DNA of 64,000 nucleotides from an uncultured Acidobacteriota bacterium (GCA_963827515.1 CAWHBF010000022.1:1857-65856), one strand, 5' to 3'. Positions 19,664 to 52,097 are shown, counted from the first letter of the stretch. Program-made: numbers and translations. Notes: generated by a model from the letters alone, not told the origin.

Positions 19664-19814
19664 CTAGAGCGGTTTGCGTTTCGCCGTAGAGCGCACGCTT
19701 CAGCGTGCGCGTGTCCGCGGAGGCTAACCGCCTCCGCCAAGGCTACGGCGGTCCGCCGAAGCTTTACGCGAAGGCGGAAGCCTCCGCTCTACACCGAATC
19801 GCAAAGCGCTCTAG
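19664..19814. repeat. 151-bp element copy carrying a 50-bp palindromic insert (19728-19777)
   Basis: CTAG ends; CCGCCTCCGCCAAGGCTACGGCGG-T-CCGCCGAAGCTTTACGCGAAGGCGG in the hairpin loop. Confidence 0.95.
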
Positions 19815-19824
19815 ACGAGCGAGG

Positions 19825-20367
19825 CTACTTCTTTGCCGTCGGTGGAAAGTTCTTGAACAGCTTGTCGGAGGCTTTTTCGAGCCTTTTCGCGTTCTTCTCC
19901 GGGTTGTCCGAAATTTCGTCCTCGGCGGTGCCGCGGTACACGAGGTTCTTGGTTTTCGCGTCGAACATGTCGACGACCAGCGTGCCGATCGTGTATTCGC
20001 TCACAGTGGTGGAAGCCGTGCCCATGCCACCCATGCCGCCGTAGCGGTATCCGTAGCCGCCCATGCCGCCGCTGTAGAACGTGTTGACATTGCGCTTGGT
20101 CGAGGTGGCACCGTGGAGGACCACGTCAATATCCGCCTGGCCCTCATTGCCTCTCTTCCAGCCCTTGGCGGCGATGGCCTGATCGAACTCCTCGAGCACC
20201 CGGCGCTGCGAGAGGTCGTTGCCCCAGGCCGTACCAATCTTGATCGTGTAGGTCTGGACCGGCGCGAAGTTGAACGCCTTGTCGAAGTCGATTTTCACAT
20301 CCTGTGCGATGGCCAACGCGGGGAGCGCGAGGAGGCAACCGGTGAGCACTGCGGGAAGTAGTTTCAT
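19825..20367 (-). CDS. DUF4136 family secreted protein
   Basis: Signal peptide, DFDK..NF, YTIGTLVVDMFDAKTK.LVYRG, FKNFPP. Confidence 0.85.
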   Translation of the reverse strand: MKLLPAVLTGCLLALPALAIAQDVKIDFDKAFNFAPVQTYTIKIGTAWGNDLSQRRVLEEFDQAIAAKGWKRGNEGQADIDVVLHGATSTKRNVNTFYSGGMGGYGYRYGGMGGMGTASTTVSEYTIGTLVVDMFDAKTKNLVYRGTAEDEISDNPEKNAKRLEKASDKLFKNFPPTAKK

Positions 20368-20486
20368 GACGTCTCTCCTGAGGGGCCCGACATGGGCAGA
20401 CTTGTTGAGCGGAACAATCGAGCGGGGCCGGCGACCGACGCCGCCCGGTCTCATGCGGAAGAAACAGCGCGCGCCAGTCACGTGAA

Positions 20487-21494
20487 TCACGGGACCTGCT
20501 TCCAGGATGCGTCCGGATTGTAGACCGTCATCTTTCGAGCGATGGCGTCAGTTTGAGGGCCCAGATCTCGTTCCCGCACGGTGCCGTCCTGATTGACGAT
20601 GAACGTCATGACTCCGGTCGCGTCGTACTCAGCTGGCCAGGCGACAAGCGCGAATCCTCCAGACATTTCGCCCTTGACGAGATAGCTCCTGGCCCCACCC
20701 GAGGCCGCAGCTCCCTGGCCGGTCAGAATCTTGAAATAGTAGCCATGCAAAGGCGTCGGCTGCGTGCGATCCCCGCCGAGGGGACTTCCTTCCCCCGCGG
20801 CCTGTGCCACCAGATCACCAAGTGGACTCCGCGCCTGGCCGCGCGCGGCCGGCCAATACAGGCCGTTCTCCTTGCCGGGATCGCTCTGGAACTTCGTCGC
20901 GTGTACACCTGCGGGCTTGCCGTCGTGTCCCTGTAGCGCGTAACGCTTCTGCGCGGTGACATAGGCGCGGCTGGTCGCGATCGCGTCCAGCTCGTTGCGT
21001 CCGATCCGCCGCGCCAGCACTTCTTCCGTCCCGGCGGCTGTGTCGAATCGCCATCCGTCCGCCCCCTTGACGAGCGGCACCGGGAAGGGCCAGTCCTCGT
21101 TGCCGACCACGAGCGTCTTTTGACTGGGCGTCACATCCTCGAGATGCCACTGCTCCCTGAATGCGATCGCGAACACCTGGCGGTTCATCCGAGCGGTCGC
21201 GGGATCGGATGACGCGATCAGCGCCTGCCCGTCGGGACCGAAGATCGCCAGCAGCGCGTCGAGCTGCCCGGTCTTGACCGTGTCGGCGAGCGCCTTGACG
21301 GCATCTTCAGGCGTCGCAAACGTGCGCTGCGTCGCGGTCTGTCCCGCGGCGATCGCCGACGAGGCGAGAAGCGCCAGCAACGCGCACGCGAATACTCGAG
21401 CGCTGACGCCGCGGCGCCGGGGTCCGAGATGGGTGTCTGATCGATTCATACCGATCGTCCTGGTCATGTCTGCCGACCTCTTCCCGGCGCTCAC
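20487..21494 (-). CDS. DUF2950 family protein
   Basis: FATPEDA, WPFPVPL, RRIGRNEL, HGYYFKIL, GVMTFIVNQDG. Confidence 0.88.
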   Translation of the reverse strand: MSAGKRSADMTRTIGMNRSDTHLGPRRRGVSARVFACALLALLASSAIAAGQTATQRTFATPEDAVKALADTVKTGQLDALLAIFGPDGQALIASSDPATARMNRQVFAIAFREQWHLEDVTPSQKTLVVGNEDWPFPVPLVKGADGWRFDTAAGTEEVLARRIGRNELDAIATSRAYVTAQKRYALQGHDGKPAGVHATKFQSDPGKENGLYWPAARGQARSPLGDLVAQAAGEGSPLGGDRTQPTPLHGYYFKILTGQGAAASGGARSYLVKGEMSGGFALVAWPAEYDATGVMTFIVNQDGTVRERDLGPQTDAIARKMTVYNPDASWKQVP

Positions 21495-22708
21495 CGGCGG
21501 CGGCCCCCGCCTCCGCCCCCGCGCGAGCTGCCGCGGCTCTGTTGTCCACGAGCACTGGACGAGCGTTGCGATCCTCCGCTCGAATATCCGGAAAATGCGT
21601 CCGAGCCGCTGTTTCGTTTAGGCGTTGCCTGAGTCGTGCTTCCGCTGCCGTAGCCGCGGGCTTCGGCACTGCCTGTGCGACCCGTCGTCGCGCTCTGGGT
21701 CGTAGCGCCTTGTGCCTGTCTCTGGGTCGCAGCGCCTTGTGCCTGCGCGCTCCGCTCCGTTCGTTGCGCCTGCGTCTCCGGTCGCGTTTCCTGCCGTGTC
21801 TCTTGACGGTCCGTGCGCTGCTCCTGGGCCGTGCCGGCGCGATCGGTCCTCTGCTCCGATCGGTTCTCCGCGCGATCGCCGCGATCCTCGATAACGTCCT
21901 CGCGGTGATCCATCCAATCCTCGCGAGCGTCTTCCCGATGGTCGTAGTAGTCGTCCCAGGCGTCGTTGTACATGTAGCCGCCGCCGTGCCATCCGTACGG
22001 ACCGTAGTAGTAGCTGTTGTCCATCGCCGCGCCAATCGCGATCCCGGCCGTGAACCCGATGAGGCCGGCCGCGATCGCCTCCTCGGCGTCATCGTCGTCT
22101 TCCTGGACGACGACCACCGACGGAGCCTGGGTGTACACCACCTCGGTGTTGTATTGCGGGACGTAGACGATCTGCGGATTGGTGGGCTCGATGACGATCA
22201 CTTCCTGGCCAGCTGACGTGGTCTTGGTTTGGACCTCCTGCTGCGGCGAACTCTTGAGAGTGCCAACGTTCTTCGCCTGGAGCCTCAATTTCTGAATGCT
22301 GGCAAAGACCGCGCTTCGATCCGTCGTGAACGCTTGCCCCAGCACCCTCGTCCAGGCGATCTGGGTCGCCATCTGCGAGACGACTTGAGGGAAGACCACC
22401 AACGCCACGAAGCTCGCATCGAACCCGGCCTTGACCGCGGCGTCCTGAAGGGCCGTGCCTTTCAGTTTCTGGTTGGCCTTCATCCACGTGTCGAGCTCCG
22501 CGACTTTCGCGGGGTCGGTCGCGCTCATCAGCATCTGCGCGAGCAGTTGGTCTGGGTAGAGCGCAATCGGAGCGAGCAATTGATCCATCGTGCTTGTCGG
22601 GAACGGTGCGCCCTGGGCGGCCGCCTGGACACCCGCGGTGGCCTGCTGCTGCGGCGGACCGCACGCCACGAGCACCACGACGGTTGCGGCAATCAAGCGT
22701 GAGGTCAT
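21491..22708 (-). CDS. DUF3300 family protein
   Basis: LAPIALYPDQLLAQ, IEPTNPQIVYVPQYN, low-complexity RG-rich tail. Confidence 0.88.
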   Translation of the reverse strand: MTSRLIAATVVVLVACGPPQQQATAGVQAAAQGAPFPTSTMDQLLAPIALYPDQLLAQMLMSATDPAKVAELDTWMKANQKLKGTALQDAAVKAGFDASFVALVVFPQVVSQMATQIAWTRVLGQAFTTDRSAVFASIQKLRLQAKNVGTLKSSPQQEVQTKTTSAGQEVIVIEPTNPQIVYVPQYNTEVVYTQAPSVVVVQEDDDDAEEAIAAGLIGFTAGIAIGAAMDNSYYYGPYGWHGGGYMYNDAWDDYYDHREDAREDWMDHREDVIEDRGDRAENRSEQRTDRAGTAQEQRTDRQETRQETRPETQAQRTERSAQAQGAATQRQAQGATTQSATTGRTGSAEARGYGSGSTTQATPKRNSGSDAFSGYSSGGSQRSSSARGQQSRGSSRGGGGGGRRR

Positions 22709-22851
22709 AGTTCACCCTTCAGTCGCGCCGCAGCCTCGTCGTTCAGTAACGGCCGCTGGTGGCGCAGGTCACGAAATACGGTGCTCCGCCGATGGAATCG
22801 AGTCGGTTTCCGGGGAGATCTGGAGATCCGTCGAATCTTGGGGACTGCGGT

Positions 22852-22867
22852 CGCAGAGATCGTGCCA
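22852..22867 (-). promoter_or_regulatory. sigma54 -24/-12 motif for the DUF3300 operon
   Basis: TGGCACGATCTCTGCG on the minus strand (GG-N10-GC). Confidence 0.6.
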
Positions 22868-22950
22868 GCCCCCGCCATCTTGGAGATGCTCTGAAATGCC
22901 GGAGGGCTCAACCCGGTACCCTCGAACATCGAATGCCGCAAAGCCTTGTT

Positions 22951-23006
22951 CTTCAACAGTTTCAGAGGGCCGGCGATGCCGTCCTCTCATTGGCACTCAC
23001 GGTGCT
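22951..23006 (+). promoter_or_regulatory. IHF-like site plus sigma54 motif for the lipoprotein/DASS operon
   Basis: CTTCAACAGTTTC (22951-22963) and TGGCACTCACGGTGCT (22991-23006). Confidence 0.55.
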
Positions 23007-23041
23007 CATCGAAGCTCATCCGAGTAGGACAAGAACACCAG

Positions 23042-23609
23042 ATGGACGGCCTCACCATAGCGCGTCGGCTCCGATTCAGGTGGATCACGACGCTCGCACT
23101 GCTGACGCTGGCGTCCTGCGGCGGACCGGCGGGTGGCGGCCTGAATGCCCCGACCGCCGACGGGTGGCACACCTTCGAGGGGAACATGGACTGCCTCGGG
23201 CACGCGAACGACCCTCGACCTGGGGTCGAACCATACGGCGTCGAACTTCCATCTGAACGGGACGCTGGTGCTCACCGAGGGCACGCTCGCCGTCGGCTTC
23301 CGGGCCGAGATCATCGGTCTCGTGGACAGCCAGAGCGGAATGGTTGGCCGCGCGGTGTGGACCGACGAGCGAGGCGACAAGGTGTTCAGCGAGTTGAAGG
23401 GCCAGGTTGGAACCGGCAACCGCATCGCCGGCACGTTCCTCGGCGGGTCCGGGCGCTACGCCGGGGCCATGGGGGAGTATGAATTCCAGTGGAAGTACGT
23501 CCTCACGCCCGAGGACGGCACCATGAGCGGCCGGGCCGTCGGCCTCAAAGGTCGATTGGGTGCGGGCGCTCCTTCCGGTTCAGTCCCACCGGCTGAAGGC
23601 GTCCGCTGA
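23042..23609 (+). CDS. Hypothetical beta-rich lipoprotein, frameshift ~23185
   Basis: Lipobox LASC; WTDERGDKVF, FLGGSGRYAG. Confidence 0.65.
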
Positions 23610-25030
23610 CCGCTCTCGATGTCCGTCGCCGGCGCCGACGAACGCTGATCAAGCAGGGCCTGACATTCGCCCTCGCGCTCGGCATCTGGCTGACGCCGAC
23701 TCCAGCAGGGCTCACCACTGAGGCGTGGCACCTCTTCGCCATCTTCGCGTCCGCGATTCTCTCCGTCATCCTGAACGCATTCCCCCTCGTGACCGCCGCG
23801 ATGATGGCGGTCGCGGCCGCGGTGCTCACCCGCGCGGTCACGCCCGAGAAGGCCTTCGCGGGCTTCGCGAACTCGAGCGTCCTCCTCGTCGTCATCGCCT
23901 TCCTGGTCGCCTATGGGGTGGTGAAATGCGGCCTGGGACAGCGCCTGAGTCTCCTGGTGGTCAGCGTGTTCGGCCGCTCGACACTCGGGCTGGGGTACAG
24001 CATCTTCGTCACCGATGCCGTCATCGCCCCGGCGTTCCCGAGCAACACGGCGCGCGGCGGCGTGCTGTTTCCAATCGTTCTCGCCCTCGCGCAAAACGCC
24101 GGATCGAAGCCCGACGACGAGGCCACGCGGCGGCTGGGCGGCTATCTGATGTTCTCCGGGATGGCGAGTCTCGCCGTCTCCTCGGCCCTCTGGCTCACCG
24201 CCACGTCGGTCAACCCGATCGGCGTGTCGGTGGCCGCACAATACGGTCTCACGATCAACTTCGGTTCGTGGTTCCTCGCCGCGTCGGTGCCGACGCTGAC
24301 CGCGATCCTGCTGCTTCCTCTCTTTCTGTACTGGCTGTATCCGCCCGGCGTGGCGGCTTCGCCCGGCGCCCCGGCAGCGGCCCGCGCGGCGCTACGCTCG
24401 ATGGGGCCCCTGAGCCGCGACGAGTGGATCGTGGCGGTGTCCTTCGCGCTCATGGTGACGGGCTGGGTCATGGCGACGACCTTCAACCTGAGTCTCACGG
24501 CCATCGCCTTCGCCGGCCTTGCGGCGCTCCTCGCGACCGCCGTCCTCACCGCGGATGACATCGCCCAGCAGGGAAGCACATTGGCCACCTATCTGTGGCT
24601 CGCGGTGCTGTTTGCCCTGAGCAACCAGTTGAACGAACTGGGCTTCATGAGCTACGTCGGAGATCGGCTGACCTCTTTGCTCGGAGGCATCCCGTGGCCG
24701 ATCGCATACGTGTCGGTGCTCGTGCTCTACGTCTTGATGCACTACCTTTTCGTCAGCCAGTCTTCGCAGGTCCTGGCCCTCTTCGGCGTGTTCCTGGATG
24801 TTGGCATCCGGACCGGTGTCCCTGCGCCCCTCATGGGGTTCGCGCTCCTGTTCGCCAGCAGCTACTTCTCGGTGATCACTCCCCAGGGCGGAAGCCAGAA
24901 CGTGATCTTCGTCGGGGCCGGGTACCTCTCCCAGGGCGAGTTGTACCGTCTTGGCGCTCTCACGACCGCTTTCTGCGTCCTGATTTTCTTGGTCGTAGGC
25001 ACTCCATGGCTGCTGTTCATCACCCGCTGA
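23606..25030 (+). CDS. DASS family sodium-coupled anion symporter
   Basis: PSNTARGGV, LWLTA..VNP, ~13 TM helices; frame open back to CTG at 23606. Confidence 0.85.
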   Translation: MTALDVRRRRRRTLIKQGLTFALALGIWLTPTPAGLTTEAWHLFAIFASAILSVILNAFPLVTAAMMAVAAAVLTRAVTPEKAFAGFANSSVLLVVIAFLVAYGVVKCGLGQRLSLLVVSVFGRSTLGLGYSIFVTDAVIAPAFPSNTARGGVLFPIVLALAQNAGSKPDDEATRRLGGYLMFSGMASLAVSSALWLTATSVNPIGVSVAAQYGLTINFGSWFLAASVPTLTAILLLPLFLYWLYPPGVAASPGAPAAARAALRSMGPLSRDEWIVAVSFALMVTGWVMATTFNLSLTAIAFAGLAALLATAVLTADDIAQQGSTLATYLWLAVLFALSNQLNELGFMSYVGDRLTSLLGGIPWPIAYVSVLVLYVLMHYLFVSQSSQVLALFGVFLDVGIRTGVPAPLMGFALLFASSYFSVITPQGGSQNVIFVGAGYLSQGELYRLGALTTAFCVLIFLVVGTPWLLFITR

Positions 25031-25096
25031 GGCGGCCGCTCGGCGACGAGCCTGCCTGAGCTGAGCGTTCTACGTTTTCGGGAGACGCAGGCAGGG

Positions 25097-25648
25097 ATGA
25101 AACAGATCCTGGTGGGCCTCGTCCTGGGATCGCTCGCGTCGCTCGGTTGTGGCGCGACTCCTGGGCAGGACGTTCGCTACGAGCCAACGCCGATGCCGGT
25201 CGTGCGCGCAATGTTGGAGCTGGCTGATGTCGGCCCGCAGGACCTCGTCTACGATCTCGGATCCGGAGACGGACGCATCCCGATCACCGCGGCGAAGGAG
25301 TTCGGCGCGCGTGGCGTGGGAATCGAGATCGACCCCGCCCTGGTGACCGAGGCGCAGGCGAAGGCGCGTGAGGCGGGTGTCGAGGACAAAGTGGAGTTCA
25401 AGCTCGGCAACATGTATGCGGCCGATGTCACGTCCGCCACCGTCGTGACCCTCTTCCTGCACCCGGGACCGAACCTCAAGCTGCGGGAGAAGCTGCGCAC
25501 CGACCTGCTGGCGGGTTCACGGGTCGTCTCCTACGTCTGGGACATGGGCGGCTGGACACCGGCGGAGGTTCGCCGGGTCGACGAGCATCGGATTTTCCTC
25601 TGGCGGATCCCGTCTCGTGCGAGCGTGACCTCGATGGCGCGCCGGTGA
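25097..25648 (+). CDS. Exported SAM-dependent methyltransferase-like protein
   Basis: YDLGSGDGRI, GVGIEID; signal/lipobox SLGC. Confidence 0.82.
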   Translation: MKQILVGLVLGSLASLGCGATPGQDVRYEPTPMPVVRAMLELADVGPQDLVYDLGSGDGRIPITAAKEFGARGVGIEIDPALVTEAQAKAREAGVEDKVEFKLGNMYAADVTSATVVTLFLHPGPNLKLREKLRTDLLAGSRVVSYVWDMGGWTPAEVRRVDEHRIFLWRIPSRASVTSMARR

Positions 25649-25842
25649 GCATCACGGGCCGGACCCCGGCACGCGTTTCATGTCGATGCGCGTGACTTCG
25701 TGGCCCACCGCCTGATAGCAAGTCCGCATCCACGGTGAATCTGGTCTACCTGCCGAACCTGTAACCGAGAGCTCCATTTTGGTGGCTGAGGCCACGTAAG
25801 CCCTGTCGCGAGAGCCCCTCCGCGTCACCGTATCCCATTACA

Positions 25843-25899
25843 ACACAAACAGTTACGAGGTTGGCGAGAGCCAACGACGAAATTGGCGTAAGGCTTGCG
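25843..25899 (+). promoter_or_regulatory. IHF-like site plus sigma54 motif
   Basis: CACAAACAGTTA then TGGCGTAAGGCTTGCG (25884-25899), 26 bp before the ATG. Confidence 0.65.
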
Positions 25900-25924
25900 G
25901 CGGGATTACGTTCCACCAGCCCCC

Positions 25925-28900: not shown

Positions 28901-30268
28901 GAGATCGACGCCGCGACGGCCCGCGCGGTCGCCACTCGCGAGGCCCGCGCCGAGGCCGAAGCGGCCCTGGCCCGCCAGCATGACGCCGAGATCGCACGTA
29001 TTCAGCAAGAGGCGGAATCCCGCCTCCGAGCGGAGATGGAGCGCGCCCGTCAGGAGATCGAACTCGCGCAGGTTGCCGGGCAGGCCCAACTCGAGCAAGC
29101 GCGACTCGATGCCGAACTGGAGGCCCGCGCCCGCGCCGACCAGATGCTGCAGGGTGAGATCGAGCGTGCGCGAGTGGAGGCCAGCGCGCGTCTCGACGCA
29201 GAAATCGCGGCCGTGCGAGCCGATGCCGAGCGGCAGCGGGTCGCCGAGCTGGCAGAAATTCGCGCGCACCTGGCCGAAGCGGAAGAACGCGCCGCCGCAC
29301 AGGCTCGCTCGGCGGCAGCAGGGATGATCTCGACGCAGGTCGCGCGCGCCGAGGCGTCGATCCAGATGGCCACGCGGGTGGCCCCACGGCCGGGTCGCCC
29401 CGCCACGGCGTCGACGAAGCGAATCGCCACGAAGGCCATCAGCAGGACCGCTTCCCTGCGACAGGCGTGGGACCGCATCCCCACCTACACACTCCCAACG
29501 GCAGCAGGCATTCTGCTGGCCGCGAGCGCGATGGGGTTTCTGAACCCACTCTCTTCGGCCACCAGGGCGGTGCCGGTCGCACCGCCGGCATCGGACGTCT
29601 CCGCTACCGGCCGAGGCCGCCGCCGCCCGCTCGGCCGACCGAACCACCGTACGCCAGGAGACCCACGACCGGCGCGCGACCCTCGACCGCACCCGACGCG
29701 ACCGCGCCGCCCGCAACGGATACCCTGCCTACCGCAGCCGAGAACGGAGGAGCCGAGACCGCCGAGAGTACCCGTGGCAGACGGGGCGACGACCACCGGG
29801 ACGCTCAGGGTGTTCTCGCGAGTGCCGCTGGAGATTCAGATCGGAGATCGCCGAATCGGGTCGTCGGAGGAAGAGATTGCGCTCCCGCCAGGTCGACACC
29901 AGCTCCGGCTCGTCAACGCACGCCTGGGCTATCAGGCCGACGTCGCCGTGGACGTCCGATCGTCAGCCTTGACGACGCATATAGCAGCCCTGCCTCAAGG
30001 CCAGGTCCAGGTCGTGGCGCCGGCCGGAAGCGAGATTTGGATCGAAGGAAAGCTCGTGGGGGTCGCACCGCTTGGTGTCATGACCGTGCCGCTCGGCACG
30101 CAAGCGATCGAGGTGAAGCATCCCCAGTACGGTGACGGGAACGGGTTCGTCGAAGTTCGAAACGGCGGGGTTACGGAGATCCGCATCGATCCACGCGATG
30201 CGCTCCGCCGGCGGGCGAACGATTTCCCTCTGCCTTCACTCACGCAGCCGGGTCCGACGATTCGATAG
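25925..30268 (+). CDS. Giant protein: degenerate receiver-like domain, ~900-aa E/A/R helical repeat region, TM, C-terminal PEGA-like domains
   Basis: LVLAVDP..PDLVLVS; 119-aa repeats; PGRHQLRL and GSEIWIEG..VG.APL motifs. Confidence 0.78.
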   Translation: MSLVLAVDPDGEQTESLRQIVGRHDGAQLVLVRSAYAAVVAINRRVPDLVLVSESLGPKTQQSVVDHFRAVSATADPQTLVIPDRKARGRDTSPKKRKASATGQWPVDDEHFGAQVAACLARVDEHKRAMAKRAAPVEPVHDPILDLLRTPPKPQPAPEAPDVRELQAPEPETAQPAAREPEPAIPAPDFASPDVLPRVDVPLPEVVSAPSLLRVEAPPATVSSSVPELVLLDVPTAVRPKTDDTDDDDIHVDLEARGDDRIDAQLHSAHIALVQAQAEATLAAELERVRREAAAERVAEMARLQEEADARRHEEVNQARANAESDARSALTEELARARAEAEQKLEAELERVRVEAEQRLATQLEEAEAVRLAEVERARLAAEESARLALDGEIARIKAEGDAQLRDELQRAGAESERARIREEAAARVETELARARQEAEEARLAQQQAQRDLEATREAAARDAIIAAEEAAARAVEVEAERVRKEADLRLQEELARVRAEAERERQIQRDVERETAAAREAEALEARAATEAAAAREREAEVARIQAAAEARLREELARAQQEIERTQLAGQAQLQQARLDAEREAYALAEAMLRTETERARELADLRLQEELTRLREEAEQARQAEGARQAQQESEAVDAMAAREAAAREARAEAEASLAREHEAEIARIQHEAESRLHAELARMREEAALEQVAGLAQLEAEREALARAEAKLQAEAEEAKRTADARLEEELARLRAEAEQARQAQREMAVDAMAAREAAALKARADAEAALAREHDAEIARIQQEADARLHAELMRARQEIERAETDGRAKLEQARQDAELEARARAETLLQAEAERARQAADAHLQEELARLRAEAEEARHAKLETEVDAAAALAAAAREARAEAEAALNREHDAEIARIQQEAESRLRAEMERARQEIELAQVAGQAHLEQARLDAELEARARADELLQAEIERARQAADARLEDELARLRVEAEGARNATLESEIDAATARAVATREARAEAEAALARQHDAEIARIQQEAESRLRAEMERARQEIELAQVAGQAQLEQARLDAELEARARADQMLQGEIERARVEASARLDAEIAAVRADAERQRVAELAEIRAHLAEAEERAAAQARSAAAGMISTQVARAEASIQMATRVAPRPGRPATASTKRIATKAISRTASLRQAWDRIPTYTLPTAAGILLAASAMGFLNPLSSATRAVPVAPPASDVSATGRGRRRPLGRPNHRTPGDPRPARDPRPHPTRPRRPQRIPCLPQPRTEEPRPPRVPVADGATTTGTLRVFSRVPLEIQIGDRRIGSSEEEIALPPGRHQLRLVNARLGYQADVAVDVRSSALTTHIAALPQGQVQVVAPAGSEIWIEGKLVGVAPLGVMTVPLGTQAIEVKHPQYGDGNGFVEVRNGGVTEIRIDPRDALRRRANDFPLPSLTQPGPTIR
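27530..29290 (+). repeat. Intragenic tandem repeats, 357-bp period in the last three units
   Basis: (E/Q)HDAEIARIQQEA starts at 28262, 28619, 28976; looser units at ~27540 and ~27920. Confidence 0.85.
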
Positions 30269-30415
30269 ACCGCTTTTCGATTCGGCGTAGAGCGGAGGCT
30301 TCGCCTTCGCGTAAAGCTTCGGCGGACCGCCGTAGCCTTGGCGGAGGCGGTCAGCCTCCGCGGACACGCGCACGCTGAAGCGTGCGCTCTACGGCGAAAT
30401 GCAAATGGTCTTTAG
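30265..30415. repeat. 151-bp element copy with palindromic insert (30302-30350)
   Basis: Begins at the TAG stop of the giant ORF; same insert as 19728. Confidence 0.93.
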
Positions 30416-30438
30416 CCTGCGCGTGGCGAACGAGCCAC

Positions 30439-31020
30439 TCACCCGCCGAAGTAGGCCGGCTCACTTCCCTTCTTCCACTTGATGTTGCAGCCGAGGCTCG
30501 GCCGCTGATCGGAGGGTACAGCCTGCCCGCCGAGAAGCGCCTCCACCGCGGCCCGCAGGTCGCTCCCCGTCACTGGCAGCGGTGAGCCGGGGCGGCTCCC
30601 GTCGAACTGCCCTCGATACACCAGCTTCCCTGCGCCGTCGAACAGGAAGAAGTCCGGCGTACACGCGGCACGAAAAGCTTTGGCTACCTCCTGCGACTCG
30701 TCGACGAGATAGGGAAAGGTATAGCCGGCCTCACGGGCTTCCTGTCGCATGCCGTCCACGCCGTCATCGGGCACGGCGGTCGTGTCGTTCGAGTTCACCG
30801 CCACGACGCCAAGACCACGCCGACGAAACTCCTGCGCGGCGCGCGCGAATTCGCTGCGCACGTGCTTCACGTACGGGCAATGCGGGCACAGAAACGCCAC
30901 GAGCAGGCCCTGCGACGTCGCGGCGTCGTGCGAGGAGAGGACGGTGCCATCGAAATCGGGCAGACGAAACGGGGGAACACTGCCCCCGAGTTCCAACATG
31001 GTCGACGCAGTACGCACCAT
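30439..31020 (-). CDS. Thioredoxin-family (AhpC/TSA-like) protein
   Basis: CPHCPYV, AACTPDFF, YRGQFD, SLGCNIKWK. Confidence 0.9.
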   Translation of the reverse strand: MVRTASTMLELGGSVPPFRLPDFDGTVLSSHDAATSQGLLVAFLCPHCPYVKHVRSEFARAAQEFRRRGLGVVAVNSNDTTAVPDDGVDGMRQEAREAGYTFPYLVDESQEVAKAFRAACTPDFFLFDGAGKLVYRGQFDGSRPGSPLPVTGSDLRAAVEALLGGQAVPSDQRPSLGCNIKWKKGSEPAYFGG

Positions 31021-31126: not shown

Positions 31127-31220
31127 GCGGTTTGCGTTTCGCCGTAGAGCGCACGCTTCAGCGTGCGCGTGTCCGCGGAGGCAAAGCCTCCGCTCTACGA
31201 GAAATCGAAAAGCGCTCTAA
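31127..31220. repeat. ~100-bp element copy
   Basis: Both REP hairpins present; the end overlaps the TonB receptor stop. Confidence 0.92.
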
Positions 31221-34200
31221 AAGCCGTACTTCACTCCAAACTGGATGATCCGCGGCGCACCGGCCATGGTCGTGATCTGGCCGAAGGTGCCGGCGTCGTA
31301 GTTGATCACCGGATCGCCCCAGTTGAAATTGTTGAGAAGGTTGAACATCTCGAGACGGAGTTCCAGGTTGTGCCGGTCAGAGATGGACAGCTGCCTCGAG
31401 AGCGCCAGGTCAATGGTCCAGAACCCAGGGCCCTCGATGCTGCTGGGCGTCATGGTGCCGAGTTCACCGGCGGCGGGGTACGCGAACGCGGTGGCACTCA
31501 GGTAGTTCGTCAAGCTCTTGTCCCCGTAGGGATCGTCTTTCACCTGATTGATGACATTGCCCTGGATGCCCGTACCGGCGACGTCCCGGCCGGTGGTCAC
31601 CCCAAGCCAGGCGCCCGAACGCGCACTGAGGATGCCCGAAGCTCTCCAGCCGGATGCCAAGGCACGCATCGTCGCACCGCTGAACTCCGGCGTCTCGTAC
31701 CCGGTCGTGAGCGTGAAGACCTGGCGTCGGCTCTGGACGCAGTTCCCCCGATCGAATGCTGGATCATCCGGTTTCCGATAACCGGCGCTGATCTGCGGAA
31801 AACCAGTGACGACGGTGTTGCCCACGCAGCGCGATATTGTGTAGTTGCCGCTGAGAGTCACGCCGTCAACAGCGCGACGCCGAACCGACAGCTTCAGCCC
31901 GGCGTAATCCTGCGTGCCGAGGTCGTCGAATCGATCCACAGGTCCAAGCAACCGAGAGGCTTGTGGGTCCTCCAGAGACAGCACGCGCCGCTGGTCGAGG
32001 TTGTTCGCCGCGGTGCAGACCGGATAGGTCACTCCCTGGAGCGTGCAGGGACCGGTTCCCAGGAATACGCCGGGGTTGATCGCCACCTGGCCCCAGAGGC
32101 GATCGCTGTAGCTGCCCAGATAACTCGCCGCCGCCTGCCAAGCCGTACCGATCTGCTGTTCGACGGTGACGTTCCATGACTGGACCCTTGGCGAATTGAT
32201 ATCCGGGGACATCGAACCGAACGAGCCGTACACCGGGAACGGGGCGTCTGGCGGAGGAACCACGGGAATTGGATTGATGTCGCCACCAGGTACGCCCGCA
32301 TAGGGATCGTCGAACGTGACCCCCTCCAGCCGGAGGCGATTCGCATACGGCGACGCTGAGGCCGCGATGTAAAGGTACGCTGCGGTCATGAAGTCGTACG
32401 CCAATCCGTACGAGGTGCGCACCGCCGTGCGACCGGTCCCTGTCACGTCCCAGGCGACACCCACGCGGGGCGACAGGTTCCACCACTGCGGGTTCATGCC
32501 GGAGTTCCCGGATGGAAACCCGGGGTCACCGGGAAACATGAGACCAGCCGGTGCGTTCGTGAACACCGTGCTCTCGACGCCGTTCCGGAAGTTGTCGAGG
32601 CTGAAATTCGAAATCGCGCCATTCTGGACGTTCTGACCGAAAAACGGTTCCCAGCGAAGACCTGCGTTCACGGTCACGCGGTTCGTCGCCCTCCATGCAT
32701 CCTGTGCGTAAAGAGCGATGTAGGTCTGATCCAGAGGCAGGATCCCGGGCGCCCCGTGCTCCAGGCGAAACAGCTGCCCGCTGAGAAAGTCCGCCAGCGG
32801 CAAGCCCGTTCTGGAACCGTTGAAGGTGAAGTTCCCCACGGAGCGTCCGTTGATCAACTGATCGGACGTCCAGTACCGAATAGGTGCCGCCGACGCCGAT
32901 CTCATGGGCGCCCCGCACCATCGTGAAGTCATCGCTGATCTGGTAGTACTCCTGATCGACGTACTGCTTCACCGACCCGCCGGTCCCTATACTGAATGCG
33001 CTGGTCACATCCAAGACGATCTGGCCAGGGATGTACGTGTAGACCTTGCTACCCACCGACGGCGCATCCAGGAACGGCGCCAGGTCGATGTCCACGTGCG
33101 TCGGGTTCAGCGCCACACGCAGCGAATTGACCATGCTGGAGCCGAAGATGAGCGTGTCGCCGAACGTGAGGGACTTGGCGGTGCTCACTTTGGGCCGGCC
33201 CCGCACAGAGGTCGTCAGCATGTTGCTCGTTCTCGGCCAGGCCGCCTGCGCACTGAAATCGGTGTGCAGATACCGCCCGAAGACGGAGTGGTTGGCACTC
33301 AGCTGGTAGTCGATCTTGGCGACAGCCTGCCACTCGTCGTCATCAGCCGGCGCTCCGTAGGTGATAGCGCCGCATGGGTCCGTTGATTTCGGAAGCTTCT
33401 CGGCGACGTTGAGCGCAGCCGGACTGAACAGAGCGGGACTGAGCCGATTGTTCACGAACGGGGCACGCAACGCGATCTGCCGGCCACCGTTGCACGCAGG
33501 TGACGCAAACGCCGTGAAATCGCCGGCGAGCATTTCGGCGGTCGGCACCCACGCCTGGAGGTCGGCGGGAACTTGCCGGGTCCTCGTGCCCTGATACGCG
33601 CCGAAGAAGAAGAGCCGGTTCTGAACGAGCGGCCCGCCCAGCGTGCCCCCGTACTGGTTGCGGCTCAAACCGTCGTCCTGCCTCTTGCCGTCAGGTCCGA
33701 TAGCGGCGAACGGGTTGGTCGCGTTGAACTGATGGTCACGAAGGAACTCGAACGCGTTGCCGGAAACACGATTGGTGCCCGACTTCGTCACGGCATTGAC
33801 AGACGCCCCCGAGTGCACACCATTCTGAGCCGTGAGACCGCTCGTGGCCACCCTGAATTCCTGGAGCGCATCCGGAAAAGGAAGCGGCAGGTTCAGGTTG
33901 TTGTACGAATCGTTGTGCAGCGCGCCGTCGAGGAAGTACCCGACACCGAAGGAAAGTCCACCCGCAACCGAGATTTGCGCAGACCCCGGGGTAGCTCGCG
34001 CCGCGGAATTGCCCAGATCTGTCGCGACCGCGGCCCCAGCGAGCACGATCAGGTCGGTCACCTGGCGGCCCTGCAACGGAAGCTCGACGATACGCTCGTT
34101 CTCGATGACATCGCTGATGCCGGAACTCCTCACGTCGACGAGCGGCGCGGCCGCCTCGACCGTGACTGTCTCGGCCAAATCACCGAGGCCTAGCGCGACG

Positions 34201-38684: not shown

Positions 38685-38685
38685 G

Positions 38686-38878: not shown

Positions 38879-38879
38879 A

Positions 38880-39557: not shown

Positions 39558-41476
39558 TCGGACGGCTCGCGCTCCGTTCGCTCACGGCGCATCCCGTTCG
39601 CAGCGCCGTGCTCGCGGCCGGGTTCGGAGTGGGTGTCGCGGTGATGGCCATCCTGCTCGGGGTCGCGCAGGTCGTACTCGAACAATCGCGTGCGCCGGCC
39701 CTGGTTGGCGGAGGCGACGTCCTGATCCGCCTGGCACCCGAAGTACCCGCACGTCTGGTGCTCTCGGGCGCGCTCCAGTCCGACGCGTTCAGACCTGGGA
39801 TTGCGACGGCCGCACCGACGCACACGGCGAGGCTCTATCTTCGGCACGGTGGACGAAGCACCCGCGTCGCCGCGCGCGGCGGCATTCCCAGTCTGGAACG
39901 CGTGCTCGGTGATGAGGAAGTCGCCGGGATCCCGAACTGGCGCGACTCGCCGAACGACATCGCGTGGACACAGGACACGCCCGAGAAGGTGCTGCGCTAC
40001 ATCGACCGATTTCACGCCATTCCCGACGCACCCACCTGGGGCGCCTCGTGGGCGGAATGGCTGTACTTCAACGGCCGCGCCTCCGGCGCCCGCTTCTATC
40101 TCACGTTTCTCGTCGGACCCTCCATGACCGACGGCCGCCGGCGCGCCGGGGTCCGGTTGCAGCTCGACCGCGGGGGTCGAGTCGAGACCTTCACGGCCAG
40201 CCAACCGGTGGCCGACGCCGACGCCCAAAAGGCGCCGGACCTCGACATCGGCGAGAGCTTCGTCCGGCTCGAGGGCATGACCTACCGAGTGCACCTCGAT
40301 CTGCGAGACGAGAAGGGCCGCCGGGCACGGGGCGACCTGACCATTGAAGCGTCCCCAGGGCGGCTGGTGCCGCCACTCGAGATCTCGGGCGCCCTCGGAT
40401 GGCGATCGGGTTATGTGGTGCCGGTGATGTCAGGCCGACTCGACGGAACCCTGGATGTCGGCGACGAACGCGTCTCGTTTGCGGGCGGCACCGGGTATCA
40501 CGATCACAACTGGGGGTTCTGGCAAGGTGTGTCGTGGCAGTGGGGGCAAGTGCAACAGGGCGATGTGTCCCTGCTGTATGGGCGCGTTTTTCCACCCAGC
40601 GAAGCCGCCGATGCCGACCGCGTGCCGGGATTCGTCGGCGTGCTGGGCCCCGACGGTCCTCTTGGGTACGCGACAGACGTGACGATCGAGGAGACGAACG
40701 ATGCAGGCGGTGCCCCGCAGGTGATCATCGTGCGTGCGCGGGGCTCCGACCTGAACGTCCAGATCCGATTCGACGTCGAGGCAGCCGTCACCACAAGGGG
40801 GACCGGATCGGCGTCGGCCGCCGCGTCGGGTCCGCTCGGCAGCGGACTCGATTTTCTACAACTGCGCGGCACCTACACCGTGACCGGCCACGCGGGAGCA
40901 CGGACGCTGAAGTTCTCGGCGCCGGGAAGCGCGGAGACGTTCAGGGGCACCCGCCCGCGCACGCTAAAGCGGTTTGCGTTTCGCCGTAGAGCGCACGCTT
41001 CAGCGTGCGCGTGTCCGCGGAGGCTAAAGCCTCCGCTCTACGCCGAATCGAAAAACGCTCGGGCGTTTACTCTACGACGCCTGCTACCGCGCACGCTGAA
41101 GCATGCGCTCTACGCGGCCGGCGAGACCGTCACCGCGCCGCGTCTAATGCGTGCCGGGCCGCGATTTGCGCTCTTCGCCTTCGCAGGCTCAGCGCCTCGA
41201 GGGTCTGCTCGAGCGGCAGCCTCACCTGCACCATCTGCGCGGCTTCCTGACGACGTCGAATCTCCACCCGGAAACACTCGAAACAGAGCGTCCGCGGCCG
41301 ATCCAACCGCGGATCGTCCTCGTGGGGTCGAAAGCCATAGCGGGCTTCTTTCGCCTGGCACGACGCGCACAGGAGCGGCGTCTGCGGCGACCGGTCCACC
41401 TTCGGACGCGGTGGGGTGGTCCATCCCTGGTCGAGTGCGAGCTGTGCTGACATCTGTCCTCCTCCGTGGGTGCTGA
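39554..41476 (+). CDS. Permease N-terminus fused to an AttH/CrtC lipocalin-like domain; 3' end beyond ~40950 is repeat read-through
   Basis: LALRSL..HPVRS plus TM; EWLYFN, GYHDHNWG..WQW; ORF crosses the element and an antisense gene. Confidence 0.65.
   Translation: MIGRLALRSLTAHPVRSAVLAAGFGVGVAVMAILLGVAQVVLEQSRAPALVGGGDVLIRLAPEVPARLVLSGALQSDAFRPGIATAAPTHTARLYLRHGGRSTRVAARGGIPSLERVLGDEEVAGIPNWRDSPNDIAWTQDTPEKVLRYIDRFHAIPDAPTWGASWAEWLYFNGRASGARFYLTFLVGPSMTDGRRRAGVRLQLDRGGRVETFTASQPVADADAQKAPDLDIGESFVRLEGMTYRVHLDLRDEKGRRARGDLTIEASPGRLVPPLEISGALGWRSGYVVPVMSGRLDGTLDVGDERVSFAGGTGYHDHNWGFWQGVSWQWGQVQQGDVSLLYGRVFPPSEAADADRVPGFVGVLGPDGPLGYATDVTIEETNDAGGAPQVIIVRARGSDLNVQIRFDVEAAVTTRGTGSASAAASGPLGSGLDFLQLRGTYTVTGHAGARTLKFSAPGSAETFRGTRPRTLKRFAFRRRAHASACACPRRLKPPLYAESKNARAFTLRRLLPRTLKHALYAAGETVTAPRLMRAGPRFALFAFAGSAPRGSARAAASPAPSARLPDDVESPPGNTRNRASAADPTADRPRGVESHSGLLSPGTTRTGAASAATGPPSDAVGWSIPGRVRAVLTSVLLRGC
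40964..41113. repeat. Element copy (40964-41060) plus solo REP hairpin (41089-41113)
   Basis: Direct sequence match to the other copies. Confidence 0.9.
41130..41453 (-). CDS. Small protein with two CxxC motifs (putative zinc finger)
   Basis: CASC...CFEC; RBS GGAGGAGG; upstream TACACT. Confidence 0.65.
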   Translation of the reverse strand: MSAQLALDQGWTTPPRPKVDRSPQTPLLCASCQAKEARYGFRPHEDDPRLDRPRTLCFECFRVEIRRRQEAAQMVQVRLPLEQTLEALSLRRRRAQIAARHALDAAR

Positions 41477-41535
41477 ACCCAGTGTAAGGAGACGCTGTGA
41501 CAGCCTAGGTCATCGATGGTGACCGACGTGCCGCG

Positions 41536-42136: not shown

Positions 42137-42138
42137 TC

Positions 42139-42213
42139 GGGCTCTGGACTCTGGGCTCTCGGCTCCGGGCTTGGGTTCGCGGCCTTGGGCCACGGGCCTT
42201 CGGCTGTCGGTCT
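42139..42213. repeat. Heptamer tandem array (GGGCTCT-like)
   Basis: gggctct ggactct gggctct cggctcc... ggccttg ggccacg ggccttc. Confidence 0.75.
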
Positions 42214-42238
42214 AACTAATAAGGCTATCATCGAGAAG

Positions 42239-43096: not shown

Positions 43097-43126
43097 CCTC
43101 ACATCTGTGACGTCACTGGGAGTGCC

Positions 43127-44806: not shown

Positions 44807-44820
44807 GCGACACTGCCCTG

Positions 44821-44836
44821 TGCATGACCACTGCCA
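44821..44836 (-). promoter_or_regulatory. sigma54 -24/-12 motif upstream of the four-helix-bundle gene
   Basis: TGGCAGTGGTCATGCA on the minus strand, 15 bp from the ATG. Confidence 0.55.
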
Positions 44837-44894
44837 CGAGGACTGCGAGCAGAAACGAGACGCAGATCGACCGGCGCGTCGCAATTTCTCCACC

Positions 44895-44927
44895 CACTTT
44901 CAACTTTAAACTTTGCACTTTCTACTT
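44895..44927. repeat. ACTTT heptamer array, inverted relative to 44364-44420
   Basis: cacttt caacttt aaacttt gcacttt ctactt. Confidence 0.85.
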
Positions 44928-45719: not shown

Positions 45720-45732
45720 GGGACGTTCGCCT

Positions 45733-46506: not shown

Positions 46507-46600
46507 CGCACCCCTCGGAGGAATAAGGAAAAAAGAAGACACGGGCTGCTCTCGGGTTGTCCGCTCACGGGGACACGAAAACGCCGAGCGTGCAATACCA

Positions 46601-46616
46601 AGCAAGCTTGACGCCA
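46601..46616 (-). promoter_or_regulatory. sigma54 -24/-12 motif for the OMP gene
   Basis: TGGCGTCAAGCTTGCT on the minus strand. Confidence 0.62.
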
Positions 46617-46651
46617 GTTTCCTTGGCTACGATCGGCCAGAATATAGCGGC

Positions 46652-47587: not shown

Positions 47588-48635
47588 GCCAAGAGCGGCA
47601 CGGCCGGTCAGGAGCGCACTGAGCGAGCTGACGAGAGCGCGCGTGCTCGAGCTCACTCGTGAGCCCGAGGCCGTGTTCTGGGTCTTCGTCTTCCCCATCC
47701 TGATGGCCGGCCTTCTCGGCGTGGCCTTTCGCAGTCGCCCGCCGGAGGCTCTCCCAGTCGCCGTGGTCGCGGGCGAACATGCCGAAGCCAGAGCCGCGGC
47801 CCTGTCCGCCGGGGCGGATGTGGCTCCGCGGATTCTCTCCGCCCCGGAGGCGAGGCTGGCACTCACCCGAGGCCAGGTGTTGTTGGTCGTGTCGAACGAC
47901 GAGGTGCCGTCGTATGGCTACGATCCAACGAATGGCGAAAGCCGCGCCGCACGGCTGGCGGTGGACGCGGCGCTTCAACGTGCCGCGGGGCGGTCGGATG
48001 CGTTCAACGCGGACATGGCGGCGGTCACCGCACCGGGGACCCGCTATGTCGACTTCCTCGTCCCGGGTCTGCTCGGTATGAACCTGATGGGCACCGGCAT
48101 GTGGGGTGTCGGCTTCTCGCTGGTCTCCGCTCGCAACGGCAACCTGCTCAAGCGACTCATCGCGGCACCTGCCAGACGCAGTCACATCCTGGCGGCGCAG
48201 CTCACCTCTCGTGTGATTCTGCTGATTCCAGAAGCTGGAGCGCTGCTCCTCTTCGGCCACTTTGCGCTCGGCGTACCCATACAAGGCTCCGTGATCCTGC
48301 TCACCGGGGTCTCGTTGCTGGGTGCGCTGACCTTCACGGGGATCGGGCTGCTGACAGCGGCGCGACCGCGGACGGTAGAAGGGGTGTCAGGCATCATGAA
48401 CGTCGTGATGGTCCCGATGTGGACCTTCTCCGGGATCTTCTTCTCGACCGAGCGCTTCCCGGCGAGCATGCAACCGTTCATTCAGGTGCTCCCGCTGACA
48501 GCGCTCAACGATGCTCTTCGCGCAGTCATGCTCGAAGGCACCGGCCTCGCACCGTTAGTCCCCGATCTGGCCTTGCTCGCCACATGGGGCATCGTGAGCT
48601 TCCTGCTCGCTCTCAAGCTCTTCCGCTGGCAGTAG
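47580..48635 (+). CDS. ABC-2 type permease
   Basis: RYVDFLVPG, FSGIFF, LPLT.L.DALR. Confidence 0.88.
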   Translation: MTKPRAARPVRSALSELTRARVLELTREPEAVFWVFVFPILMAGLLGVAFRSRPPEALPVAVVAGEHAEARAAALSAGADVAPRILSAPEARLALTRGQVLLVVSNDEVPSYGYDPTNGESRAARLAVDAALQRAAGRSDAFNADMAAVTAPGTRYVDFLVPGLLGMNLMGTGMWGVGFSLVSARNGNLLKRLIAAPARRSHILAAQLTSRVILLIPEAGALLLFGHFALGVPIQGSVILLTGVSLLGALTFTGIGLLTAARPRTVEGVSGIMNVVMVPMWTFSGIFFSTERFPASMQPFIQVLPLTALNDALRAVMLEGTGLAPLVPDLALLATWGIVSFLLALKLFRWQ

Positions 48636-48642
48636 GGTCGGA

Positions 48643-48777
48643 CCGAGACTTTGGACTTTAGACTTTGGACTTTGGACTTTGGGCTCTGGGCTCTGGACTT
48701 GGGCTCTGGGCTGTGGGTTCTGACAATCAACTTGATACTTTTTACTTTTCTACTTTTTACTTTTAAGTTTTAAGTCT
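48643..48777. repeat. Composite heptamer arrays (GACTTTG grading to GGCTCTG, then TACTTTT)
   Basis: Arrays fill almost the entire intergenic space. Confidence 0.88.
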
Positions 48778-49692
48778 ATGTACGACGTCCTCGGCGTCGG
48801 CGCCAACTCCGTCGACTACGTCTATCGCCTCCCGCAGTTCCCGCAACCGGACGGCCCAGCCTCGAAGCTGCGGATCTCGCATCACACCATCTCGTGTGGC
48901 GGACAGACCGCGACGACCCTCTGCACATGCGCCGCGATGGGGCTCACCACGCGATACATCGGCGCCACGGGAAGTGATGACAACGGCCAGCTCATACGCG
49001 ACGCCCTCATGGACCGCGGTGTCGATATCGGGCAAAGCGTCGAGAGTGACGACGGCAACGCCTTTGCGGTGATTCTGCTCGACCAGCGAGAGGGTGAACG
49101 AGTGGTCCTCTGGCAACGCCCGCCAGGGCTCGAGCTCGCGCCAGGAGACCTCGACCCTGACGTCATCTGCGACGCCCGGCTGCTTCACGTGGACGACGTG
49201 GACATCGACGCATCGATTCGGGCGGCCTTGATGGCGCGAGCGGCGGGCCTCCCGGTGACGAGCGACATCGAGCAGGTCGGCGAGCGGACGGAGGAGCTTG
49301 TCGGCGCCGTGACGATTCCCATCTTTGCCGAGCACGTGCTGGAGCCGCTCACCGGGGAGCAGGATTTCGAACGGGCCCTGCGGAAGCTCAGGCGCCGTCA
49401 TGCGGGAATGCTGTGCGTGACGCTCGGTGCACGCGGTGCGATGTTGCTCGACGGTGACGAGCTGCACGAGCAACCCGCCTTTCCGATGATCGTCACCGAC
49501 ACGACCGGAGCGGGAGACGTCTTTCGCGGCGCCTTCATCACGGCGCTGCTCCGCGGCGATGCGCCGCCGGACATCCTGCGATTCGCCAACGCCGCCGCGG
49601 CCATTTGCTGCACCCGTCTCGGCGCGATCGCCGGTGTGCCGACACTGGCGGAGACCGAGGCGCTGGCTCGCGGCAAGGGTCGCGCAGGCTAA
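48778..49692 (+). CDS. PfkB family carbohydrate kinase
   Basis: GG...T, VTLGARG, DTTGAGDVF. Confidence 0.9.
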   Translation: MYDVLGVGANSVDYVYRLPQFPQPDGPASKLRISHHTISCGGQTATTLCTCAAMGLTTRYIGATGSDDNGQLIRDALMDRGVDIGQSVESDDGNAFAVILLDQREGERVVLWQRPPGLELAPGDLDPDVICDARLLHVDDVDIDASIRAALMARAAGLPVTSDIEQVGERTEELVGAVTIPIFAEHVLEPLTGEQDFERALRKLRRRHAGMLCVTLGARGAMLLDGDELHEQPAFPMIVTDTTGAGDVFRGAFITALLRGDAPPDILRFANAAAAICCTRLGAIAGVPTLAETEALARGKGRAG

Positions 49693-49866
49693 CCGCCTCC
49701 GCCAAGGCTACGGCGGTCCGCCGAAGCTTCAGCGCGAACGGCGGAAGCGCGCGCTACGTAAGGTCGGACACTTCCTTCGATTCGGCGTAGAGCGGAGGCT
49801 TTAGCCTCCGCGGACACGCGCCACCTGTAGAGCGCACGCTTCAGCGTGCGCGGAACACGAGGGACT

Positions 49867-49870: not shown

Positions 49871-52097
<2,227 letters not shown>

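Follow-up and report, generated by a model that had tools for sequence, protein, structure and literature searches.

How does one palindrome of about 50 nucleotides (nt) come to lie in the loops of several different repetitive extragenic palindromic (REP) hairpins? The question is raised by a 64,000-nt stretch of DNA from an uncultured Acidobacteriota bacterium (GCA_963827515.1 CAWHBF010000022.1:1857-65856; hereafter the window), in which a first-pass annotation had described three copies of such an element and regarded it as a separately mobile layer nested within the REPs. We compared the window with the rest of its own genome (5.85 Mb, 35 contigs, 64% G+C) and with other genomes. The finding is real and non-random. 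A 51-nt segment is present in or absent from the loops of GTAG/CTAC-tagged REP hairpins, with a defined flank motif, a fixed polarity, many unrelated host stems and conservation across the order Vicinamibacterales. We infer that the change was an insertion and not a deletion, and that its mechanism is of the single-strand kind carried out by HUH Y1 enzymes.

Copies and hosts within the window

Arm A of the element, a 24-mer, was matched with at most three mismatches at 19728-19751 (+), 30327-30350 (-) and 49693-49716 (+), where 100 shuffles gave a mean of 0.00; the 50-mer as a whole occurred three times in the window against 0 expected. Arm B was matched at 19753-19777 and 30301-30325, and the third site yielded no arm B match at up to three mismatches. 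The three copies of the first-pass annotation were therefore recovered, with the correction that copy 2 starts at 30301 and not at 30302, lies as a reverse complement and is one terminal base short. Its description of two inverted 24-25-mers held for copies 1 and 2; in copy 3 arm B has diverged.

Copy 1 (19728..19777, plus strand) is a 50-nt imperfect palindrome composed of arm A (19728-19751), a T at 19752 and arm B (19753-19777), and its sequence equals the consensus for the 22 GGAGGC-hosted copies. The A at 19778, just after it, brings the difference from empty hosts to 51 nt. Its host (19664..19814, plus strand) is a 151-bp, REPIN-like REP doublet in which the outer arms enclose GTAG-hairpin 1 (GCGCACGC, loop TTCA), a spacer and hairpin 2 (GCGGAGGC)-CTAC; the element is lodged in the loop of hairpin 2 at CTAA^AG (the caret marks the junction). 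Copy 2 (30301..30350, minus strand; C22:32157-32206 in genome coordinates) ends one base short at its 3' end (GGCGA-AGCC) and occupies the loop CTGA^AG of a 151-bp doublet like the first, on the opposite strand (30265..30415). Copy 3 (49693..49744, plus strand) is 52 nt long, with arm A intact and a diverged arm B (GAAGCTTCAGCGCGAACGGCGG). Unlike the doublets that hold copies 1 and 2, its host (49680..49757, plus strand) is a solo hairpin, GCGCAGGC...GCGCGCGCTAC, of another stem class (TCGCGCAGGC TAA ^ AAGCGCGCGCTAC), as had been claimed.

Empty doublets are found in the same window, so that filled hosts of 151 bp and empty ones of 100 bp do exist side by side as first described. Hairpin 2 of the 100-bp doublet at 40964..41063 (+) reads GGAGGCTAAAGCCTCC, and that of the doublet at 31127..31226 (+) has a loop one base short (GGAGGCAAAGCCTCC). 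Three further empty doublets, with coordinates taken from BLAST matches, lie at 10237..10336 (-; E_C22_12093m), 54132..54231 (+; E_C22_55988p) and 60998..61097 (-; E_C22_62854m).

The insertion point in the genome

A BLAST search of the element's own genome with the 50-mer returned 92 high-scoring segment pairs, of which 58 were at least 20 nt, 45 at least 36 nt and 36 full length. The left flank of the full-length copies was CTAA in 24, CTGA in 11 and CCAA in 1, and thus read C[TC][AG]A in 36/36; the right flank was AAG in 32/36, carried a 1-nt deletion in three and differed in one. The fixed loop site proposed from the window copies is thereby upheld, and the flanks are non-random genome-wide. 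The same 36 copies were hosted by stems of the CGGAGGC type (24), CGCACGC (6), CGCAGGC (3), (C/G)GGGGC (2) and CGTAGGC (1).

The empty state was represented by at least 465 perfect hairpins with a 7-bp stem and the loop TAAA or TGAA. These were by far the commonest loops in the genome, the next loop type accounting for only 42 hairpins, and CTAC came after nearly all of them. Their stems were CGCACGC (206), CGGAGGC (79), CGCAGGC (68), GTCCGGC (46), GTCCGCC (37), GGCCGGC (15) and CGGGGGC (3). Empty loops read GCTAAAGC or GCTGAAGC, i.e. GCT(A/G)AAGC, and filled loops read GCT(A/G)A-(50 nt)-AAGC, which leaves a difference of exactly 51 nt with one ambiguous A and no target duplication. In both states the A or G of the loop followed the host class, GGAGGC hosts having mostly TAA and GCACGC hosts mostly TGA. 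This base therefore belongs to the host, and the event took place inside a pre-existing hairpin.

In the own genome the element always lay on the strand reading ...CT(A/G)A^AG...CTAC. A hairpin is closed at only 474 of the 4422 CT[AG]AAG sites in this genome, but by 7 of the 8 tallied host stem variants; amplification after landing may account for part of this enrichment. All but one of the 45 copies aligned over at least 36 nt fell outside crude long open reading frame (ORF) calls, the copy at C1:282083 being spanned by one. Decayed copies showed irregular, ragged internal deletions and not clean empty loops.

Host hairpins and doublets

In the commonest host two REPs form an inverted doublet between outer arms, a REPIN-like build. 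When its GCACGC hairpin was filled instead, the doublet was reversed relative to the element. The outer arms hardly ever occurred without the core, arms and core being found together in 116/123 cases. These arms (e.g., 19664-19685 and 19793-19814 in the window) were 12-16% off their consensus, and the GTAG...CTAC core 1-3%; either the two parts are under sharply different constraint, or the cores are renewed in place.

The first 10 nt of the element (CCGCCTCCGC) include GCCTCCGC, which is the 3' strand of the stem in the commonest host hairpin (window 19720-19740, 19778-19788), and a filled copy is able to form the alternative hairpin GCGGAGGC-TAACC-GCCTCCGC. A host stem of the GCCTCCGC type was met only in the own genome. 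Since the element is order-wide and this stem is seen in the own genome alone, the commonest host stem may derive from the element. An 8-nt match links the 5' arm of the element with the GGAGGC host stem; we rejected it as a possible target duplication, since other hosts do not show it.

Arm A alone (CCRCCTTCGCCAAGGCTAYGGCGG) was also found in the loop of another CTAC-tagged hairpin family, GGCGGGTCCGC TT .. ACAAGTC GCGGAACCCGCC CTAC. There are about seven such copies, e.g., on contig 25 at 318226 and 320863, contig 10 at 151644 and contig 32 at 125967. Because arm A by itself occupies other hairpin loops, the first hairpin also exists as a stand-alone module.

Anatomy and fold of the module

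The module consists of two short GC-rich hairpins linked by a single T, CCGCC..GCCAAGGCTAC..GGCGG - T - CCGCCGAAGC-variable loop-GCGAAGGCGG. Among 97 aligned copies from many genomes, 30 columns were invariant, with an invariant block running from GCCAAGGCTA through GG.GGTCCGCCGAAGC. In the second arm the loop was hypervariable in length and sequence (TTCA, TTTAC, GCTTCGC, ATTT and others), next to the invariant stems of hairpin B with their GAA/GAA internal loop.

The fold z-score of the 50-mer was -3.35. A single long hairpin that extends the host stem was energetically better than two hairpins, at -32.4 vs -24.1 kcal/mol as DNA and -53.8 vs -46.5 with RNA energies. The sole covarying pair, position 3 with 22 (G-C in 73 sequences, A-U in 13, G-U in 1, other in 9), fits the two hairpins, and the long-hairpin model leaves position 3 without a partner in 24 sequences; this covariation may reflect one inherited change. 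A search of 10 loci against Rfam 15 at E up to 1 returned a lone match, to an unrelated small RNA (24.1 bits against a gathering threshold of 46). A hammerhead-like core, dif/Xer sites and fold-back priming were considered by eye and rejected.

Distribution in other genomes

The element 37-mer (at most three mismatches) was present in 10/40 relatives, from three families of Vicinamibacterales. In a phylum-wide sample it was found in 5/24 further Vicinamibacterales genomes, in 0/2 same-class genomes outside the order and in 0/274 other Acidobacteriota. An exact-pattern scan with one genome per species gave at least 118 loci, and among the matches listed nearly all were titled Vicinamibacterales, Vicinamibacteria or Acidobacteriota metagenome-assembled genomes (MAGs). 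Viral contigs gave 0 element matches. Across related genomes the copy number ranged from 0 to about 40, and each genome had its own subvariant.

From these other genomes 130 distinct copies were extracted and 127 parsed. Complementary flanks of at least 6 bp enclosed 88/127 copies and represented 58 distinct host stems, the 5' strand of which ended in NCT in 75/88. CTAC followed within 8 nt downstream of the stem in 54/88 hosts, GTAG preceded it in 0, and the orientation relative to the REP tag was constant in 54/54 informative hosts. The flank logo was C-T-R-A^A-A-G in hairpin hosts and C-Y-R-A^A-A-G in the 39 copies that lacked a clear stem. As the motif C-Y-R-A^A-G persists where no host stem is present, targeting appears to be sequence-specific. 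Empty hairpins of matching stem coexisted with filled ones in other genomes as well; a same-genus genome held 18 GGTCCGGC...T(A/G)AA hairpins alongside filled ones.

A variant with an extra A, CCAGCC, which forms a bulge in arm A, was seen in 53/127 copies. It also occurred in two non-REP contexts, each common to several MAGs: ..GGCTCGCCGA^..^AAGCGCCGGAGGCGCGAAGGCGG and ..GCGCGGCGCGA^..^AAGTCGCCGCGCGAGAGCG..GGGGGTGGGGCC (loci L040, L044, L047, L137, L156 and L070, L075, L110, L149). These contexts may be further repeat families or conserved loci.

Insertion into REP loops as the favoured reading

We favour a non-autonomous element that inserts at C-Y-R-A^A-G in hairpin loops and then hitch-hikes on the amplification of the REP doublet, and give this reading a probability of about 0.5. 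A gene-less module of about 51 nt would land in one orientation, without target duplication, at C-Y-R-A^A-G, a target that the T-R-A-A loops of Vicinamibacterales GTAG/CTAC REP hairpins would present; the hairpin loop, being single-stranded, would be accessible. The reaction may be a 'peel and paste' on a single strand by an enzyme acting in trans, of the HUH Y1 class represented by the REP-associated tyrosine transposases (RAYTs) and by the insertion sequences (ISs) of the IS200/IS605 kind. Once inside a REP, the module would be copied with it, and such joint copying would account for the approximately 24 near-identical composites in the own genome.

Insertion is favoured over deletion because empty hairpins are uniform and more than 10 times commoner than filled ones, because decayed copies are ragged and do not resemble clean loops, and because the motif recurs at non-hairpin sites. 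The REPs that flank the RAYT-like gene are short-looped, as are REPs in general according to passages of PMC3733652, which argues that the short loop is the primary state. A tandem duplication on contig 25 (618900-619130) comprises the doublet and about 64 nt of unique flank with 2 differences; its first unit is filled, with the element and an IS, and its second is empty, so that an event in place is visible.

The absence of duplication, the single orientation, the terminal hairpins, the loop-exposed target and hosts that are themselves Y1 substrates point to an HUH Y1 mechanism. Both presumed cut sites end in C-N-R-A, the flank as C-T-R-A^ and the element end as C-G-G-A^. In the parts of PMC3479197 bearing on this point, the Y1 enzyme of REPs cuts single strands at a dinucleotide named by GTAG, and the Escherichia coli RAYT cleaves after C and before T, with A3 and G4 of GTAG specifying the cut. 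The sole Y1_Tnp match of the own genome, RAYT-like with 37 bits, lies outside the window on contig 33 (169622-169906; L009) and is flanked by plain short-loop REPs without the element. This match is split across two frames (ORFs of 108 and 77 aa), and the frame break may mark a pseudogene or an assembly error.

A more elaborate form of the favoured reading is tentative and, in our estimate, somewhat doubtful: the module might be a 51-nt single-strand 'dumbbell', a third-order replicator that homes to REP loops by means of the REPs' own or another HUH enzyme, persists vertically throughout the order as a hyperparasite of the REP-RAYT system and now serves as a landing site for the IS110 family.

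Observations that weigh against independent movement

Several observations weigh against the element's own movement or against a Y1 enzyme as its agent, and those on its spread in the own genome come first. A tree was built from 70 empty and 26 filled doublets, the latter emptied in silico. It was a star with 0 starred branches, over which filled hosts were scattered (20 changes for 22 rows), and one filled host was identical to an empty doublet. Filled hosts fall into at least five stem classes here and 58 stems in relatives, which speaks against the single monophyletic host that the first-pass annotation had named as a refutation; the tree is nevertheless compatible with a single origin of the filled state per class. 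In the 22 GGAGGC-hosted copies the element was 1.0% off its consensus, the 56-nt GTAG...CTAC core 1.0% diverged (3.2% in empties) and the outer arms, 44 nt in all, 15.9% (12.4% in empties). The simplest reading of these values is that core and element were amplified recently as one composite. An argument from 'age discordance', with a young element in an old host, was dropped, since REP core and element are equally conserved and divergence is confined to the outer arms. The element subvariants TTTAC, TTCAC and CCACC/TTCATG largely tracked host class, a match that vertical co-descent would also give. Because of composite amplification and of subvariants that follow the host, independent events in the own genome probably number about 5-10, near the number of host classes, and not about 40. 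The separate layer that had been postulated stands insofar as the module is independent of any one host; it may also move by itself, but in the commonest host class element and core, at 1.0% each, look co-amplified.

Regions around sites 1 and 3, searched in five relatives, contained no filled/empty orthologue. Site 1 gave repeat-level matches only. The genes flanking site 3 were syntenic and the intergenic repeats lineage-specific, with no REP in the same-genus genome and another genome carrying REPs of its own. Contigs from four soil runs compared with window 19000-31000 ended at the repeat. One soil-run join, 19725>19778, skips 52 positions; its shorter side measured only 24-26 nt, and it most likely represents empty hairpins from elsewhere. 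A metagenome scan with the 32-nt unique flank of site 1 gave 0 matches.

The enzymology counts on the same side, as strand preferences may. The copies agreed with the sign of local GC skew in 23/45 cases, in a draft genome where most copies are REP-spread composites, and relative to the upstream gene 24 were on the same and 14 on the opposite strand by a crude gene call, with no clear bias. The insertion point is 1-2 nt beyond the C^T cut of the E. coli RAYT as given in parts of PMC3479197. Between cut site and hairpin A there is no space for an IS608-style guide, and the AG to the right of the target site is conserved too, a feature for which the IS608 model has no need. None of 13 Y1 loci sampled from 12 genomes was bounded by the arms, for which only two chance-like partial matches were obtained at up to five errors. 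Y1 genes were present in 9/10 element-bearing and 19/30 element-free relatives and did not discriminate between them.

At site 3, the loop TAA (49690-49692) of the copy 3 host is the stop codon of an ORF at 48778-49692. The final codons and the stop of this ORF come from the 5' stem and loop of the REP hairpin (49680-49692), and copy 3 is placed directly after the stop codon. The same-genus orthologue has a different end and no REP at that place.

An IS110-family insertion sequence inside the module

An IS110-family IS of about 1.6 kb (PF01548 match) was located inside the first arm of the element at GCCAAG^...^AGGCTAC. The interrupted elements are two GCACGC-hosted copies on contig 25, at 50859-52475 and 617272-618885 (L007, L182, L199), and both IS copies look damaged, with a frame break or a degenerate sequence. 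The IS carries subterminal inverted repeats (GGAATGACCGG / CCGGTCATTCC), and a long stretch on its 3' side is non-coding; its ends, ACAATATGGAATGACC...GGTCATTCCATATC, are unrelated to those of the element. Close relatives of it in four other genomes occupied other sites (GTCCTAG^...^AGACTAG, GGCTTTAG^); the IS therefore uses the element only as a target and does not explain it. The 3' non-coding region of the IS holds GGCGGAGG, which is complementary to CCTCCGCC of the target and might be part of a guide RNA.

The genome gave 10 matches to IS110-family genes, and no IS110 copy or locus among those examined was bounded by the arms. A nuclease or transposase gene bounded by the motif, which the first-pass annotation had advised looking for, was not found among the Y1 and IS110 loci examined: the RAYT-like gene sits among plain REPs, the 13 Y1 loci lack the arms, and the IS110-family IS lies within the element.

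Alternative explanations

The element could be a long-loop architectural variant of the REP that never moves alone, an ancestral module whose host stems diverged together with their RAYTs and whose short loops arose by precise loss. The correlation of subvariants with host class, the equal divergence and apparent co-amplification of element and REP core, and the per-genome subvariants that vertical descent predicts would all fit this account, and REP families with both short and long self-complementary loops are described in portions of PMC3733652. We nonetheless consider it unlikely. Empties are uniform and exceed filled copies by more than 10:1, whereas spontaneous deletion should leave ragged ends like those of the few decayed copies, and precise, recurrent loss would need an excision enzyme of its own. 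The REPs beside the RAYT-like gene are short-looped, and the flank motif is also found at copies without a host hairpin.

The module might instead be under selection for a cellular role of its structure, in DNA or RNA, with REPs as mere carriers: it could bind a protein, or serve to stabilise or process transcripts. This is suggested by its extreme order-wide conservation, with 30 columns invariant across 97 sequences despite host stems that all differ, by the hypervariable hairpin B loop beside invariant stems with a GAA/GAA internal loop, and by one compensatory pair (G-C 73, A-U 13). This pair is possibly one inherited event, however, and Rfam offered nothing at E up to 1 save the chance-level match of 24 bits against a gathering threshold of 46. 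A copy number of 0 to about 40 among related genomes and the lack of a clear orientation bias to neighbouring genes in the crude gene call (24 same, 14 opposite) make such a role quite improbable. We regard as highly improbable a mini-element mobilised in trans by an IS110/IS1111-family recombinase, whose guide (bridge or seek) RNA would recognise, by base pairing, both the loop target and the ends of the element in joined form. Such two-sided recognition predicts a target conserved on both sides, as in C-Y-R-A^A-G-S; IS110-family genes are present (10 matches), and parts of PMC1525189 and PMC12288879 report that the family targets REPs. Against this, the one IS examined has ends that bear no relation to those of the element, the arms border no IS110 copy among those examined, and only about seven target positions are conserved.

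Significance and comparison with known systems

There is as yet no settled account of how REPs and REPINs are cleaved and moved and how their targets are chosen, and the module offers a conserved short substrate with a nucleotide-precise loop site that is both filled and empty in one genome. If it is mobile, it could provide an oligonucleotide-scale assay for Y1/RAYT-type or other activity, and parasitism here would be three or four levels deep (REP doublet, loop module, IS). If it is a selected structure, it would be an unrecognised order-wide DNA or RNA motif of Vicinamibacterales, an abundant and little-studied soil lineage. In the literature surveyed, mostly as abstracts, we found no account of a conserved module of two hairpins that recurs in REP loops on many unrelated stems, and none of a REP system in Vicinamibacterales.

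IS1397 is an IS that lands in the REP loop. REPs as landing sites of ISs (IS1397/ISKpn1, IS621, ISPpu9/10) are treated in passages of PMC1525189 and PMC3184786. The IS110-family IS described above behaves similarly, its landing site being a hairpin loop of the element. Those ISs are 1.2-1.6 kb long and autonomous with their own transposase, whereas the module is 51 nt long and gene-less. Short- and long-loop members that coexist in one REP family, and REP dimers nested in larger palindromes, are described in parts of Di Nocera et al. (2013; PMC3733652) and recall the short and long loops and nested small palindromes found here. The loops in those parts pair over at most 6-7 bp and are family-specific, whereas here one 51-nt two-hairpin sequence occurs in at least 58 unrelated stems throughout an order.

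The module has inverted arms like a classical miniature inverted-repeat transposable element, but shares only a single A with its target and lacks a target duplication of at least 2 bp. Nor do the examined IS110/IS1111 ends and loci carry the element ends or arms. Cyanobacterial small dispersed repeats (SDRs) and the internal insertions of ERIC (enterobacterial repetitive intergenic consensus) sequences are tiny palindromes inserted in small repeats at fixed internal sites; they differ in sequence, hosts and taxa, and we know of no reported link between them and RAYT-type REP loops. The integron attC site has core sites RYYYAAC ... GTTRRRY. By eye, the left junction GGCTAAC fits it in 6/7 positions in TAA hosts only and the right end GGCGGAAGC lacks GTTRRRY, and attC was rejected.

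With IS200/IS605 elements and their gene-less, PATE-like derivatives the module shares end hairpins, insertion 3' of a short fixed sequence, a single orientation and the absence of target duplication. The module differs in that neither spacer nor guide separates its left hairpin from the cut site and in the conserved right flank of its target. It may also differ in lacking a replication-strand bias (23/45 with GC skew, in a draft genome where most copies are REP-spread composites), and no full-length IS with matching end hairpins and a Y1 TnpA was seen among the 13 Y1 loci sampled.

REPs and REPINs, which number tens to hundreds of copies, are the remaining comparison. The module differs from them in that it has no GTAG foot, its own CTAC being inside the hairpin A loop; it does not flank the RAYT-like gene and lies inside REP loops, not beside REPs; and from genus to genus it changes far less than the REP stems do. 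It resembles them as a short, gene-less, GC-rich palindrome that is intergenic, high in copy number (45 copies of at least 36 nt) and long-lived in its lineage. The hairpins that hold it are REPs of the classic kind with GTAG/CTAC tags, and the genome contains a RAYT-like gene with REPs on either side. Earlier work has described ISs that target REPs, longer alternative loops within REP families and nested REP dimers, and the module is best filed among the known small palindromic mobile repeats.

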